The notes beneath the pieces were generated by a model. It was given only the letters and a program-made list of their open reading frames with translations, did not search any database and was not told the DNA's origin. A DNA stretch of 33,356 nucleotides, from positions 1-33,356 of the IMG/VR virus record IMGVR_UViG_3300013936_000008; one strand, given 5' to 3'. A program made the position numbers and the translations under genes. The stretch's first letter is position 1. Each line of letters begins with the position of its first letter. Source of the DNA: a virus. Of the stretch, positions 25,014-28,721 are shown piece by piece.

Positions 25014-25029
25014 GTGCCCAGATGGGCAC
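25014..25029. repeat. 16-bp palindrome copy 5 (GTGCCCAGATGGGCAC; extends to the 22-bp palindrome AATGTGCCCAGATGGGCACATT)
   Basis: Exact motif, 2 nt after the stop of 24485..25012 and 11 nt before the GGAGGG of ltp. Confidence 0.95.
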
Positions 25030-25051
25030 ATTAGAATTTTGGAGGGTAGAT

Positions 25052-25978
25052 ATGAGAGCCTCTACAAAAGTGTTAATTAGCGTTGTTGTCGCAGGTGCTA
25101 TTTATTTTGGGCTTGCGCCTCAAATACAGGAGGCGCGCACAAACAGCCTCGAAAATGCTAAACCCGTCAACGCATTCTCCTCCATGTCTCCCACGCCGGA
25201 AGCCTCGCCCGAAATCCCCGCTGCAATTCCGGTTGAGCAGCAAGAAACCGCAATCAATGAGGCGTGCAAGTCGGCAGAGGACACACTCAGCAACTGGAGC
25301 GAGGTCTATGTTCGCCCCGTTACGGATTCTTCGGGCGCAACGACCGTTGAGATCTCTATCGTGAGTGATGCTACCGTCGCATTGGCAAAACAGCTGTGCG
25401 CCGCCGGAGAGGGCGAAACACCAGAATGGTATGAGCCCAAATATGAGCTTGAGCGTGTAGGCGCTGACATTTTGAGCGACCTCGAAAAATCCGGCGTGTC
25501 AAGCGCGCACGTCGACATCAGAATTTTTGACGCAGACAACTATAAGCAGTTCGTTGATACGGATGGCGCGGAAGATTTCAGCGTGCTGTACATCCGTGAT
25601 GGAGCGCAGATAAATGACGCCGTATTTGATTTCGTCCCGGCGGACATTTCCTACGACGAGGGCGCTGTCCCGGTTACTTATGACGTCGTGACAAGCGGGA
25701 TGCTGAATGCGCTGAAGCAAGCAGACAGTTATCTGTCTCACTCTGCATTCTCACGCTCGGGGCTGATAGATCAGCTCGTGTATCACGGCTACACACGTGA
25801 CGAGGCGATCTACGCCGTCAACACCTGCGGCGCGGACTGGGAAGAGCAAGCGGCGCTAAAGGCGGCGTCCTACTTGTCGCACTCGGCTTTTTCAAAAAAA
25901 GAATTGATCGAGCAACTTGAATACGAGGGCTTCACCCACGCGCAAGCCGTGCACGGTGTAAACTCAGTTTATGATTGA
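25052..25978 (+). CDS. ltp: Ltp-family superinfection-exclusion protein (two Ltp repeats), N-terminal TM anchor
   Basis: The C-terminus has two repeats, LKQADSYLSHSAFSRSGLIDQLVYHGYTRDEAIYAVNTCG and LKAASYLSHSAFSKKELIEQLEYEGFTHAQAVHGVNSV. This is the host cell surface-exposed lipoprotein (Ltp) motif. ATG at 25052 lies 5 nt after GGAGGG. Confidence 0.8.
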   Translation: MRASTKVLISVVVAGAIYFGLAPQIQEARTNSLENAKPVNAFSSMSPTPEASPEIPAAIPVEQQETAINEACKSAEDTLSNWSEVYVRPVTDSSGATTVEISIVSDATVALAKQLCAAGEGETPEWYEPKYELERVGADILSDLEKSGVSSAHVDIRIFDADNYKQFVDTDGAEDFSVLYIRDGAQINDAVFDFVPADISYDEGAVPVTYDVVTSGMLNALKQADSYLSHSAFSRSGLIDQLVYHGYTRDEAIYAVNTCGADWEEQAALKAASYLSHSAFSKKELIEQLEYEGFTHAQAVHGVNSVYD

Positions 25979-25991
25979 TCTTCCGCAACGC

Positions 25992-26020
25992 TTGACACGG
26001 CGCAAGCGTTGCGGTATAAT
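25992..26020 (+). promoter_or_regulatory. Perfect consensus sigma-A promoter TTGACA-17nt-TATAAT
   Basis: TTGACA at 25992-25997, exactly 17 nt of spacer, TATAAT at 26015-26020; no ORF follows before the terminator. Confidence 0.65.
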
Positions 26021-26026
26021 ATGCAT

Positions 26027-26115
26027 AGAAAAAGGCGCTGCCGGTTGACGGTCAGCCCCCAGTTGTCATTGAAGTAATCGCCGACTTTGTGAGGGTGCGG
26101 CGATTACTTCTTTTT
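26027..26115 (+). ncRNA. Predicted antisense sRNA of about 90 nt (candidate type I antitoxin)
   Basis: The RNA is bounded by the consensus promoter and terminator 26071-26115. It is antisense to the 3' end and 3' UTR of the toxin ORF. It carries CAGCCCCC (26053-26060), complementary to the toxin SD region. Confidence 0.5.
26071..26115 (+). terminator. Intrinsic terminator (13-bp stem + TTTTT)
   Basis: GAAGTAATCGCCG (26071-26083) pairs with CGGCGATTACTTC (26098-26110), followed by TTTTT at 26111-26115. Confidence 0.7.
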
Positions 26116-26187
26116 GTATGCCTGTATAAACAGGTTGCAAATACCGATGATTACTAAGCAAAGCTGTAACACTTCGTTCGTGCTCAT
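26104..26187 (-). CDS. 27-aa hydrophobic peptide, candidate type I toxin (holin-like toxin / Fst-like)
   Basis: MSTNEVLQLCLVIIGICNLFIQAYKKK. The SD AAAGGGGGG lies 6 nt upstream of the ATG at 26187. The peptide is embedded in the 66-aa track ORF 26104..26304, whose N-terminal part has no SD. Confidence 0.6.
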   Translation of the reverse strand: MSTNEVLQLCLVIIGICNLFIQAYKKK

Positions 26188-26292
26188 GGGCAGCCCCCCT
26201 TTCGAATCAGGGGGCAGAAGCTGCCCCCGTAAGTACAGGGGCTGATCGCCTACCGTTGTATGGCAACGCCTTAGTGCCGAAGCACCATCGAC

Positions 26293-26321
26293 AGGATAGC
26301 ACACGCGGCGGCAAAATGCAA
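26293..26321 (-). promoter_or_regulatory. Candidate promoter TTGCAT-17nt-TATCCT for the toxin mRNA
   Basis: -35 at 26321-26316 and -10 at 26298-26293; predicted leader of about 100 nt beginning with a GUGC-UUCG-GCAC hairpin. Confidence 0.4.
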
Positions 26322-26324
26322 GCT

Positions 26325-26351
26325 AGAAACTCAAGAGGAGGCAGCAGCATG
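26325..26351. repeat. Left copy of the 26-27-bp direct repeat flanking the IS (AGAAACTCAAGAGGAGGCAGCAGCATG)
   Basis: Identical to 27432-27458; contains the integrase SD (AGGAGG) and ATG. Confidence 0.95.
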
Positions 26352-27431
26352 TGTAGGTTAGTCAATGATGAGTTACACATTAGGAAAAGAAAAAAGGACA
26401 TCGCTGGGAGACTTCCAGTTGAGCGGACGCATTGGGAAATTATTATATTCCCGTTGACGTACAGCAAGCTGCTTCGCAAAATCGTCAAAAGAATAGAAAC
26501 GGTGAGACGCATAAAATTCCTCATTATCTTTTCTATGACTGCGTTCCACCTTGCCGTTATGTCTCGGGGTGAACGGTCTGATCTTTTTATGCTTGATTCC
26601 CAACTGCTCAAGCGTTTTCTCGAAGAGGGTAGGCGGCTTTTTCTTGCTGTTTCCCATCTCATTTGTAAATTCAAATCCGTTATCCGTTTGAACGCATTCT
26701 ATGGCGTATTGAAACTTCTTCACTACATGCATCAGGAAAACGGTCGAGGTATATGTGTCTTTTTCCTTGAAAGCCTCCAGATAACGAAAACGGCTGTATT
26801 CATCGATAAAAGTGTACTGGTAGTAGTAACCGCCGCACTCTTTAGCATCCTCTGCCGCTTCTCCGACAAGGCATGCAGAAGGAACATATTTCACATCGAT
26901 CTGAACCTTTTGACCGGGATACCGCATCTGCTCATAAGGCTTTGGAATATATTTCGGGTTTGGCAGCTTGGTCGGAGCACCGCCGATCCGCCGCAGCAGC
27001 TTATACAGCCCTGAGATAGATCTGGTATATCCGCGCCGGCGAAGCTTGACCCAGAAGACTACCAGACCGTCGTGTGGGTTCCTTCGGCGCATGTTTTTTA
27101 CCAACGTGATCTCTGCCTCTGTGTGCTGCTTTGGGTGGCTGTGGGGACGGTGGGAGCGATCTGCCAGCGAGTGAATGTCTCCATCATATTTCTTCTTCCA
27201 ACGATAGATATTCTGACGGCTGGTCTTGTAGCGGATTGCGGCCTTTGTGACACCATGCTTCATCGAATACTCAATTACTGCTTGCTTATACCGCATGTCT
27301 TGTGTTATTTTATTCATAGCGAATAGGGTACACCTGCCTTTCGGTTTTGTCTTGTCAACTCAACCTTAACACAGGTCGCTCCTATTCGCTATCTTTTTTT
27401 ACTTCCTGTCACACATCATTGTAACTCCTAC
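26352..27431 (-). mobile_element. Insertion sequence of about 1.08 kb (rve DDE transposase, IS481-like by size) with imperfect terminal inverted repeats
   Basis: The ends are TGTAGGTTAGTCAATGATGAG... and ...CACATCATTGTAACTCCTAC(A), with about 18/26 matches and TG..CA tips. There is a single transposase ORF. GC content is visibly lower than in the flanks, and the element is flanked by a 26-27-bp direct repeat. Confidence 0.85.
26373..27317 (-). CDS. DDE (rve/integrase-core) transposase with N-terminal HTH
   Basis: 314 aa with QIDVKY...YQYTFIDEYSRFRYL (D), VQTDNGFEF (D) and RPFTPRHNGKVERSHR (E) motifs. Confidence 0.9.
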   Translation of the reverse strand: MNKITQDMRYKQAVIEYSMKHGVTKAAIRYKTSRQNIYRWKKKYDGDIHSLADRSHRPHSHPKQHTEAEITLVKNMRRRNPHDGLVVFWVKLRRRGYTRSISGLYKLLRRIGGAPTKLPNPKYIPKPYEQMRYPGQKVQIDVKYVPSACLVGEAAEDAKECGGYYYQYTFIDEYSRFRYLEAFKEKDTYTSTVFLMHVVKKFQYAIECVQTDNGFEFTNEMGNSKKKPPTLFEKTLEQLGIKHKKIRPFTPRHNGKVERSHRKDNEEFYASHRFYSFDDFAKQLAVRQREYNNFPMRPLNWKSPSDVLFSFPNV

Positions 27432-27458
27432 AGAAACTCAAGAGGAGGCAGCAGCATG
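27432..27458. repeat. Right copy of the 26-27-bp direct repeat; supplies the functional SD and ATG of int
   Basis: Identical to 26325-26351. Confidence 0.95.
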
Positions 27459-28667
27459 GCACGAAAAGCCGCGCCGGAGTTTTATTTTGACGCGCGCCTT
27501 AAACAGTATCGCAAGCGTCTCAAGGACCCACGAACGGGCAAATGGTCGATAAGCGTTTATGGCAAAACCAAAGCCGAGTGCCGCGAAAAGGCCGCGCGCC
27601 GTGCCGCCGATCTGGCAGCAGCGGTGGAAGAGAGCACGGGCGGCGCGCTCGTGTATCAATACGCCAAGACGTGGTACGACCTCAACACCCGAGACCTCGG
27701 CGCGAAACGCCGGGACGATTATCGCAATGCGATAAATAATCACATCTGCCCCGTCATCGGCGAGAAGCGGCTGTCCGACGTCACGCTTGACGACGGGTTG
27801 GAGATCCTCCGCCGATCGCCGCAGTCAAAGTCGGCGCAGCAAAAGATAGTCACCGCGCTCAAAAGGATTTTTAAAGCGGCCGCAGACAATGATATGATCC
27901 GCCGCTCTCCGTTTGCGGATCTAAAGCCGGGCGGCAAGCCCGCCGCCGAGAAGCAAGCCCTGACGCGCGAGCAGCAGGCGGCGCTGCTGGACGCGGTCAA
28001 GAACTGTGCCGTTGAGCCGTTTGTGCACCTGTGTCTGTTTGCCGGTCTGCGACGGGAGGAGGCGCTCGGTCTGCGCTGGGCAAATGTGCACCTTGATGCC
28101 GTGCCGCCTTATCTTGATGTTCGCACTGCGTGCAGCTGGCAGGGCAGGAATCAAGCTGTCGTATCGGAAACGCTAAAGAGCGCCGCCGCGCGCCGGTCTA
28201 TTCCTCTGCCTCCGCCGCTCGTTGAGAGCTTGACGGCTTTAAAAGCCGCGTCGGCGAGCGAGTATGTCGTCTGCAACCGCTCCGGCGGTGCAGTGTCCGC
28301 CACCGGTTTCCGTCGTATGTGGGGCGTGATTGCGCAGCGCACCGTGCGCGACGGCTATGCTCTCGGCGACAAAATTAAAAACCACAACATCACCGTGACA
28401 TTAGACTTCCACGTCACGCCGCACCAGCTCCGGCACACGTATATAACCGAGCTCGTGCAGTCCGGCGCGGACATCAAGACCGTGCAGTACCTCGCCGGTC
28501 ATGCGACCGTCCAGCTCACACTTAATATCTACACGCACTTGATGACGAACCGTCCCGAGGACACGGCGGTGCAGGTACTAAAAGCGTTTGGGGCTTTTTA
28601 TTCGGGCTACAAAAGCAGTTCAGGCAGCGGTCAACCCGTTGATGGCACTGCGCTTCAGACGGTTTGA
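27456..28667 (+). CDS. int: Tyrosine site-specific integrase
   Basis: 403 aa with ...GLRREEALGLRW... and HQLRHTYITELVQSGADIKTVQYLAGHATVQLTLNIYTHL (R..HxxR..Y catalytic set); adjacent to the tRNA-derived att core. Confidence 0.95.
   Translation: MARKAAPEFYFDARLKQYRKRLKDPRTGKWSISVYGKTKAECREKAARRAADLAAAVEESTGGALVYQYAKTWYDLNTRDLGAKRRDDYRNAINNHICPVIGEKRLSDVTLDDGLEILRRSPQSKSAQQKIVTALKRIFKAAADNDMIRRSPFADLKPGGKPAAEKQALTREQQAALLDAVKNCAVEPFVHLCLFAGLRREEALGLRWANVHLDAVPPYLDVRTACSWQGRNQAVVSETLKSAAARRSIPLPPPLVESLTALKAASASEYVVCNRSGGAVSATGFRRMWGVIAQRTVRDGYALGDKIKNHNITVTLDFHVTPHQLRHTYITELVQSGADIKTVQYLAGHATVQLTLNIYTHLMTNRPEDTAVQVLKAFGAFYSGYKSSSGSGQPVDGTALQTV
28604..28611. repeat. GGGCTACA motif (candidate P-arm integrase arm-type site)
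   Basis: Same octamer as in 28820-28858, located on the other side of the att core. Confidence 0.35.
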
Positions 28668-28673
28668 GATAAT

Positions 28674-28721
28674 TGCCTTTTAAGCAGGGTGTCCGGGGTT
28701 CGAATCCCCGCTGGAGCACCA
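28674..28721 (+). tRNA. Partial tRNA: 3' half of tRNA-Lys(UUU), from the anticodon loop to CCA. This is the attP/att core and not a functional gene.
   Basis: The fragment reads TGC|CTTTTAA|GCAGG|GTGTC|CGGGG-TTCGAAT-CCCCG|CTGGAGC|A|CCA. It has an anticodon loop with UUU, a 5-nt variable loop, a canonical T-arm, a 3' acceptor and CCA. No D-arm or proper 5' acceptor lies upstream, because the int stop is at 28665-28667. Confidence 0.75.

Follow-up and report, generated by a model that had tools for sequence, protein, structure and literature searches.

Does a short convergent gene pair in a prophage, with a peptide-coding mRNA on one strand and an antisense RNA on the other, represent a toxin-antitoxin (TA) system of type I, and how might its two RNAs act on each other? 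The locus that raises this question is a cassette of ~330 bp in the IMG/VR virus record IMGVR_UViG_3300013936_000008, which we analyzed over 33,356 nucleotides (nt) (positions 1 to 33,356, referred to here as the window). A preliminary description of this DNA had presented the cassette as a type I TA-like locus, in which a 27-amino-acid (aa) hydrophobic peptide encoded on the minus strand is opposed by an antisense small RNA (sRNA) with its own promoter and terminator on the plus strand. When both strands were read, every sequence feature in that description was found in place, and the anatomy of the locus agreed with comparative data on the open reading frame (ORF), promoter, and sRNA. We consider it likely that the cassette is a member of an undescribed type I TA-like family of Oscillospiraceae and phages, with the peptide as the putative toxin. 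Sequence and comparison support the ORF, both promoters, the sRNA structure, a long-distance duplex in the toxin mRNA, and a set of alternative helices.

The family was delimited by scanning one genome per species, which returned 144 loci, of which 80 were kept and 76 distinct homologous cassettes were compared; IMG/VR contributed 17 additional loci, and 16 of these were used in the promoter comparison. Because the complete cassette, in one and the same layout, is found at the 76 distinct and 16 IMG/VR loci, it is not a chance arrangement. Searches of protein collections with 40-aa and 30-aa window references (the peptide itself has 27 aa) gave 6 clusters in one case and 31 representatives in another, and the 50,697 phage records of INPHARED gave no match in blastn (distant mode) or tblastn. 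Carriers, which number over 100 when gut genomes and phages are counted together, are nearly all Oscillospiraceae (Oscillibacter, Lawsonibacter, Colidextribacter, and Pelethomonas). The loci lie in diverse contexts, including a Rep3 plasmid-like contig, viral contigs, prophages, and positions beside LexA or SpoIID/ApbA, and their 109 nearest-neighbor ORFs include 7 tyrosine integrases, 3 serine recombinases, 8 XRE regulators, and 2 PIN proteins. Several genomes hold two copies or tandem copies, and in several metagenome-assembled genomes (MAGs) the copies are on separate contigs. Judged by sequence, the mobile unit is the ~330-bp cassette itself. The diversity of contexts, the recombinase neighbors (10/109), the tandem or multicopy loci, and the presence of decayed copies are all signs of a TA-like lifestyle.

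Individual relatives show further variation. Tandem cassettes 0.36 to 1.6 kb apart were observed in L020 (1358-1441 and 3001-3084), L043 (2592-2675 and 3001-3087), and L066 (2642-2725 and 3001-3084). At L007, L043, and L059, the leader is replaced or deleted and the sRNA side is intact. Three contigs (L025, L047, and L072) are labeled Bacteroidaceae or Alloprevotella, all other carriers being Clostridia; these labels probably reflect MAG misbinning, with horizontal transfer as the alternative.

The putative toxin is encoded by the minus-strand ORF at 26187-26104, which specifies MSTNEVLQLCLVIIGICNLFIQAYKKK, a peptide with a polar N terminus, one hydrophobic helix, and a KKK tail. The ORF is genuinely coding, since the ratio of nonsynonymous to synonymous polymorphism (pN/pS) is 0.148 across 71 unique sequences, indicating purifying selection, and variability by codon position (1.97/0.61/5.99) is dominated by the third position. 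The start codon is ATG in 74/76 loci, and family peptides are 26 to 29 aa long. In homologues, the peptide is conserved and the "translation" upstream of it, including overcalled N-terminal extensions, is not.

The peptide had been likened to the Hol_Tox and Fst families, an assignment that comparison with hidden Markov models (HMMs) did not bear out. The window peptide matched nothing in Pfam or NCBIfam (for Fst, at E values up to 10), and searches of 35 family members against the same collections gave subthreshold matches only (SLATT_6, PetG, and one Hol_Tox). Hol_Tox (PF16935), the family to which the reference TxpA (P0038) was confirmed to belong, was matched by 1/35 members with an E value of 0.38; the Fst toxin HMM (PF13955) matched neither the peptide nor any member. 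Alignment of the family profile with TxpA by hhalign gave a probability of 23.5% over 16 columns, spanning MST.E...(V/M)IG. SLATT_6 was dropped as an identity, being far under its cutoff and matching the transmembrane segment only. The peptide therefore resembles TxpA/BsrG-type toxins in outline but falls outside the Hol_Tox/TxpA and Fst families as defined by HMM. Separately, the A-run that codes for the KKK tail (AAAAAGAAG) shows recurrent frameshifts or loss of the stop codon, giving C-terminally extended peptides (for example, L006 692-829; L068 2222-2416; L102; and proteins P0011, P0014, P0018, P0019, P0022, and P0026). These lesions may represent natural toxin inactivation, phase variation, or homopolymer assembly errors.

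On the opposite strand, the antisense promoter TTGACA-17-TATAAT (25992-26020, plus strand) matches the consensus at 12/12 positions, a match that is unique in the window and was found in 0 of 100 shuffles. A sigma-70 match of at least 10/12 lies on the strand opposite the toxin, 80 to 96 nt past the toxin stop, in 76/76 distinct loci; the −35 box is TTGACA in 71 of them, the −10 box reads TATAAT or TATACT, and 63 loci have a spacer of 17 nt. Spacer sequence and upstream DNA diverge among these loci. The same promoter arrangement was present in 16/16 IMG/VR loci, which were checked after the hypothesis had been formed. From this promoter we predict an antisense sRNA of ~89 nt (26027-26115, plus strand), consisting of an A-rich 5′ end, a stem-loop (SL1, ~26034-26059), a C-run (26056-26060), a linker, and an intrinsic terminator (26071-26115) with a 13-bp stem (26071-83/26098-110), a 14-nt loop, and a T5 tract. 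Read on the minus strand, the terminator is a hairpin with the toxin stop codon inside, and its A-run encodes the KKK tail. The sRNA is complementary throughout to the last 12 nt of the toxin ORF and to the 3′ untranslated region (UTR).

The structure of this RNA is conserved. The predicted fold of the window sRNA has a free energy of −37.6 kcal/mol (z = −4.55), and an alignment of 75 sRNAs folds as the 5′ stem-loop SL1 plus the terminator, with 97.4% of cells paired; slid controls of the same alignment reached 24 to 53%. Double-sided changes numbered 60, versus 21.6 ± 7.3 in shuffles (0/500 reached the observed value). Within the terminator, the covarying pair AU51/GC21 corresponds to exchange of the toxin stop codon between TAA and TGA together with its partner, and a further pair varies as CG42/UG24/UA7. 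Rfam models gave only a chance snoRNA match (E = 2.1) in a search by E value of positions 25500-26800 and, in gathering mode across the whole window, no family at the cassette. By the comparative criteria of promoter conservation and structure covariation, the antisense RNA is real. The idea that the plus-strand RNA is an int leader or attenuator was dropped, int being absent downstream in most loci. The terminator loop (26084-26097; alignment columns ~85 to 100) carries a semiconserved G-rich motif, UUGGGG or GAGGG, so the counterpart loop in the toxin mRNA is C rich (CCCUC); this loop at the mRNA stop hairpin could make a further contact, either as an anti-Shine-Dalgarno element or as a kissing loop.

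The toxin promoter (26293-26321, minus strand) consists of a −35 box TTGCAT (26321-26316), a 17-nt spacer, and the −10 box TATCCT, which is preceded by a TG that had not been pointed out before, giving the extended −10 element TGC-TATCCT (26301-26293). The pattern TTGnnn-(13-15)-TGnTAnnnT was found 77 to 112 nt before the ATG in 62/76 loci, compared to 19/1520 shuffles (1.25%), indicating that the toxin promoter is conserved, although weaker than the antisense promoter. A strong antitoxin promoter paired with a weak toxin promoter is the classical asymmetry of such systems. We infer a transcription start near 26286-26288, which would place at the 5′ terminus the hairpin UGGUGC-UUCG-GCACUA (26272-26287, minus strand), predicted by folding and kept in some homologues only.

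Where the toxin mRNA ends is indicated by the distribution of U-tracts. Along the mRNA, the 8 nt after the stop-codon hairpin include at least 5 T residues in only 7/74 loci (the window sequence here is AATGACAA). The next hairpin, formed by the complement of sRNA SL1 and termed A′, has after it, in 49/57 loci, a T-rich stretch complementary to the conserved A-rich 5′ end of the sRNA. Given that a U-tract is rare after the stop hairpin and common after A′, the toxin mRNA most likely overlaps the entire sRNA, ending probably ~75 nt past the stop hairpin. In the window, A′ occupies 26061-26031, and its hairpin together with UUUUUCUAU forms a candidate toxin-mRNA terminator (26024-26063, minus strand). 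The full-length toxin mRNA would thus extend over ~265 nt (26024-26288, minus strand), as judged from the promoter, the candidate terminator, and the requirement that A and A′ lie on one RNA. A role for the stop hairpin as a bidirectional terminator was dropped for most loci, the U-tract being missing in 67/74. In ~30 loci, a further strong terminator is found just past the sRNA −35 box.

The two ends of this mRNA are complementary. SL1 of the sRNA (GGCGCUGCCGGUUGACGGUCAGCCCCC) is a paralogue of a segment of the toxin leader, segment A (GGCGUUGCC...ACGGUAGGCGAUCAGCCCCUG; 26235-26271, minus strand), and the 3′ UTR, in the form of A′, is consequently complementary to the leader. In the minimum free energy (MFE) structure of the 265-nt mRNA (−118 kcal/mol; z = −8.26), leader nt 18 to 54 are paired with the 3′ end. 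Across 72 loci, the leader × 3′ UTR duplex was on average stronger with the arm from the same locus (−51.0 kcal/mol) than with arms from other loci (−41.5 kcal/mol; permutation P < 1 × 10−4), with the own-locus duplex at a median rank of 4 of 72. The 69 unique duplexes, of 28 bp on average, contained 206 G·U pairs versus 13 A·C mismatches. When segment A and SL1 were aligned jointly, Watson-Crick pairing was kept in the paired columns through up to four different bases, and wobble-compatible differences outnumbered those of the A·C type (158 versus 24). RNAalifold, applied to the full-length mRNA alignment, recovered the outer helix only (CG41/UA12/UG10 and GC58/AU5); the inner helix comes from the per-locus duplexes and the joint alignment. 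Segment A, as defined by folding and coevolution, is the 5′ arm of this duplex and holds the element C1 (CAGCCCCUG; 26244-26236). Its octamer CAGCCCCU (26244-26237) had been proposed as an anti-Shine-Dalgarno sequence; the octamer is present, but comparison suggests that it is better read as part of the ~28-bp 5′-3′ duplex.

Local pairing at the start of the ORF appears to be the province of other elements. Four G/C-rich segments lie in this region: C1, G1 (26228-26221), C2 (26217-26210), and the Shine-Dalgarno (SD) sequence GGGGGG (26194-26199, minus strand), which ends 6 nt before the ATG and is conserved as AAAGGGGGG or GGAGGGGG. G1 and C2 form the perfect 8-bp hairpin GGGGGCAG-CUU-CUGCCCCC (26210-26228, minus strand), here called the switch hairpin. 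C2 was paired with the SD in all predicted structures, and modeling suggests that C2 (CUGCCCCC) is the local anti-SD, for which G1 competes. Both G1:C2 and C2:SD coevolve (own-locus pairing stronger than cross-locus, P < 2 × 10−4 each), and C1:G1 and C1:SD do so more weakly; compensatory pairs also back the sequestration of the SD. In the L060 group, the pair AGAGGGCA:UGCCCUCU has changed while the SD itself is constant. In modeling, the cost of opening the SD was 5.3 ± 1.8 kcal/mol in the free full-length mRNA and 10.3 ± 2.4 kcal/mol when the sRNA-complementary 3′ region was masked. The masked cost exceeded the free cost in 64/67 loci (Wilcoxon P = 1.5 × 10−12), a difference of ~5 kcal/mol. 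The sRNA:3′ UTR duplex, at −188 kcal/mol, far outweighs the long-distance duplex.

These observations can be assembled into a model in which the antitoxin is a mimic of the mRNA leader. The weak extended −10 promoter would give a ~265-nt mRNA for a 27-aa single-helix membrane peptide, and during transcription, the C1:G1 and C2:SD helices would keep the SD closed. After reading through the stop-codon hairpin, the mRNA would end at the A′ hairpin, whereupon A′ would capture segment A over ~28 bp, leaving a stable mRNA closed from 5′ to 3′. In this closed form, C1 would be held in the duplex and G1 would be free to compete for C2, making the SD ~5 kcal/mol easier to open. The near-consensus convergent promoter would supply abundant ~89-nt sRNA, the 5′ stem-loop of which mimics segment A. 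Pairing of the sRNA with the 3′ UTR, probably starting at the complementary 14-nt hairpin loops, would displace segment A, and the freed C1 would pair with G1, locking C2 onto the SD and turning translation off; the extended sRNA:3′ UTR duplex would likely bring about decay by way of RNase III, in the manner of txpA/RatA and bsrG/SR4. The antitoxin would thus capture the 3′ arm of the duplex and act through a relay from C1 to G1 to C2 to the SD, with the closed duplex as a stable, translation-permissive reservoir and not as an inert form. We advance this relay, which draws on modeling, as a tentative proposal. If true, it would be a new allosteric mode of type I antitoxin action and, to our knowledge, the first case in Firmicutes of a toxin mRNA that contains a duplex of this kind.

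Several considerations weigh against this interpretation. Toxicity, the transcript ends, the relay, and the RNase III step are deductions for every family member, and no HMM connects the peptide with a proven toxin. The U-tract after A′ is modest (CUUUCUAU in many loci), and many loci have terminators beyond it, so that the true 3′ end of the mRNA is uncertain. The SD is predicted to be mostly paired at equilibrium in both states: in the window, its per-nucleotide unpaired probability is 0.013 (free) versus 0.044 (masked), and the probability of G1:C2 is low in the free and masked forms alike. The relay is accordingly built on the all-open free-energy difference and not on MFE structures. In addition, the asymmetry between G·U and A·C in the duplex could partly stem from self-folding of segment A.

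The same RNAs might instead work on the pattern of par from plasmid pAD1, in which case the two transcripts would share a bidirectional terminator and the C-run of the sRNA (CAGCCCCC) would bind the SD in trans as the main block to translation. This design had been put forward in the preliminary description on the strength of the overlap of the 3′ ends and of the octamer CAGCCCCC, which occurs at both 26053-60 and 26191-98. The direct repeat (GGTCAGCCCCC/GGGCAGCCCCC) and the complementarity to the SD are indeed there, with an 8-bp core and −22.4 kcal/mol in the window and a mean of −20.5 kcal/mol over all loci; the C-run, located just downstream of SL1, is for the most part unpaired in the sRNA MFE structure, and in a minority of loci a U-tract does follow the stop hairpin. 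However, the contact shows no locus-specific covariation (own-locus −20.47 versus cross-locus −20.25 kcal/mol; P = 0.12; a comparison of low power, both elements being nearly invariant). In L066, CAGC in the sRNA has become UGUC along with the leader copy while the SD remains GCUG, and two C residues of the C-run sit in covarying SL1 base pairs. The convergent 3′ overlap survives from this design; the shared terminator does not for most loci, given the U-tract counts above, and the overlap probably takes in the whole sRNA, as in txpA/RatA and bsrG/SR4. Considering also the lack of an Fst HMM match, we regard par-like control as possible but rather doubtful. A different objection is that the similarity of leader and 3′ UTR arose by gene conversion, or from self-folding of each copy, and that a 5′-3′ duplex plays no role. 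Own-locus similarity alone cannot separate selection for pairing from conversion, and the G·U bias could derive from the hairpin of segment A itself. Conversion is nevertheless unlikely, because a segment-A-specific 8-nt insertion and divergent loop-side columns, which a repeat-wide tract would erase, persist in all loci. Moreover, covariation is limited to paired columns, with up to four base identities in each, and the duplex is strong across loci (−47 to −63 kcal/mol) and dominates the mRNA MFE structure (z = −8.3). We judge this objection improbable.

Two further alternatives concern the nature of the gene products. The peptide may be a nontoxic small membrane protein, such as an accessory factor of the phage or host, whose expression a cis-antisense RNA tunes and which is not part of an addiction or defense module: toxicity is a prediction, HMMs provide no connection to proven toxins, and many loci sit amid housekeeping genes. 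Against this, multilayered SD sequestration, a strong antisense promoter facing a weak sense one, and a long-distance duplex are features typical of toxin mRNAs (PMC6733600). The multicopy and tandem loci are found beside integrases and on Rep3 plasmid-like and viral contigs, frameshifted or leader-deleted copies recur, and the N terminus and K-rich tail resemble those of TxpA/BsrG-type peptides; we think a nontoxic role unlikely. It could also be argued that there is no independent sRNA and that the plus strand is simply the 3′ UTR and terminator of the upstream gene ltp, with a fortuitous promoter match. The region does lie directly 3′ of the ltp stop codon, and a palindrome overlaps the −35 box. 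The preliminary description had named this outcome as one that would undo its proposal, but the promoter stands at the same distance from the toxin stop in all 76 distinct and all 16 viral loci, where the upstream genes are unrelated, and a 12/12 match did not arise in the 100 shuffles. We therefore consider this last explanation extremely improbable.

The genomic setting of the cassette is a prophage with genes for terminase, portal, major head protein, tape measure, DnaB, repressor, an Ltp-type lipoprotein, and integrase. The cassette lies in the lysogeny module, with ltp, encoding an Ltp-type superinfection-exclusion lipoprotein (25022-25978), on one side and int, encoding a tyrosine integrase (27456-28667), on the other. 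It had been described as next to int; it does lie in the lysogeny module near int, but an IS481-like insertion sequence (IS) element (26352-27431), inserted exactly at the int start, now separates the two. The transposase of this element (26373-27317, minus strand) scored 209.7 bits against NF033577, slightly below the cutoff of 224, and the element has imperfect 26-nt inverted repeats at its termini. It is flanked by a perfect 27-bp direct repeat (26325-51/27432-58) that includes the int ribosome-binding site and ATG; a target duplication of 27 bp would be unusually long for this family. The insertion severed int from the DNA that had preceded it and stands 4 nt away from the toxin −35 box. 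Before insertion, the toxin gene and int were divergent neighbors. A weak promoter-like sequence, TCGACA-18-CAAAAT (26288-26317, plus strand), is directed at int and overlaps sequence that, on the other strand, belongs to the toxin promoter and leader; with the IS element not yet in place, int would have been transcribed antisense to the toxin 5′ leader.

At the other border, a perfect 12-bp palindrome (CCGCAACGCTTG/CAAGCGTTGCGG; 25983-26014) directly 3′ of the ltp stop codon encloses the sRNA −35 box. In the close relatives L001, L009, and L015, the same palindrome hairpin is present, with a U-tract after it as read along the toxin mRNA. It is possible that the palindrome is the ltp terminator, an operator, both, or the remnant of a second mRNA terminator. 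Should ltp transcripts extend past it, their 3′ UTR would contain the antitoxin. Farther away, an Rfam tRNA match (28652-28718), which scored 31.4 bits against a gathering score of 29, extends over the int stop codon (28667), and ARAGORN found no tRNA at this position. This segment is probably a tRNA fragment or attachment (att) site marking the right prophage end, which would leave the endolysin-like gene at 30167-31588 outside the prophage.

The family appears to be new, being undescribed in Pfam, NCBIfam, Rfam, and the searched literature, in which the peptide sequence does not occur and in which the combination of carrier taxon and TA returned unrelated microbiome work only. Homology is a poor guide to type I TA systems, and this family numbers over 140 loci in genomes chosen to represent species of the gut Oscillospiraceae, which are abundant but poorly cultured, in addition to those in phages and plasmid-like contigs. 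It constitutes a natural mutational data set that already resolves promoters, an sRNA fold, and a long-range mRNA switch. The position of the window cassette beside a superinfection-exclusion gene and int is consistent with a role in prophage retention or defense. If the leader-mimic relay is true, the cassette would also offer a compact RNA switch and a counterselection marker for gut anaerobes.

The closest functional parallels are txpA/RatA and bsrG/SR4 of the Bacillus subtilis skin and SPbeta elements. As in the cassette, a convergent antisense RNA covers the toxin 3′ end and 3′ UTR, the site is a prophage, and the small single-helix toxin has an MST.E... N terminus and a K-rich tail. Binding of SR4 at the bsrG 3′ end raises SD sequestration and promotes RNase III decay (PMC3834814, PMC3531473). 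This extension of SD sequestration by 3′-end binding is the behavior modeled for the cassette, which differs from both systems in its lack of HMM membership and its shorter peptide (26 to 29 aa). We know of no description, for either system, of a covarying 28-bp duplex with the 3′ arm as the antitoxin target or of an antitoxin that mimics the leader. The par locus of pAD1 (Fst/RNA II, Enterococcus faecalis) resembles the cassette in its convergent RNAs, in a terminator hairpin within the overlap, and in short DNA direct repeats that give the sRNA complementarity to the translation-initiation region. The cassette departs from par in that its peptides lack an Fst HMM match, in 67/74 loci the stop hairpin does not serve as a bidirectional terminator, the overlap probably extends over the entire sRNA, and the contact with the initiation region is without covariation.

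By host and setting, the cassette is comparable to the prophage and CRISPR-adjacent type I TA loci of Clostridioides difficile (CD0977.1/RCd11 and others), which likewise reside in Clostridia, at prophage sites, as convergent overlapping genes, and whose toxins share with the cassette peptide a hydrophobic N-terminal region and a lysine-rich C terminus (PMC7699646, PMC6563280). In C. difficile, type I TAs of prophages stabilize mobile elements (PMC7699646). According to a review from 2019, searches by homology had detected type I toxins in hardly any Clostridia, and the C. difficile systems were the only ones characterized; the review reports no long-distance duplex for them (PMC6563280). The cassette, whose host family is Oscillospiraceae, shows no sequence similarity to these systems (tblastn, 50,697 phage records). 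Long-distance interactions are known in hok and aapA mRNAs (PMC5416894, PMC6733600). In hok/Sok (plasmid R1) and aapA/IsoA (Helicobacter), as in the cassette, the full-length toxin mRNA is closed by a covarying 5′-3′ duplex, and successive local SD-sequestering hairpins could act cotranscriptionally (PMC5416894, PMC6733600). In hok and aapA, however, the duplex supplies the anti-SD or locks an inactive fold, the mRNA becomes active when its 3′ end is trimmed, and the overlap with the antitoxin is in the 5′ region. In the cassette, the SD lies outside the duplex and pairs locally with C2, the 3′ arm is what the antitoxin targets, and modeling suggests that the duplex eases opening of the SD, an effect of the opposite sign. 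The leader-mimic relay, if true, would unite two designs known before only apart from each other, the 3′-overlapping antisense control of Bacillus with the 5′-3′ mRNA closure of hok and aapA.

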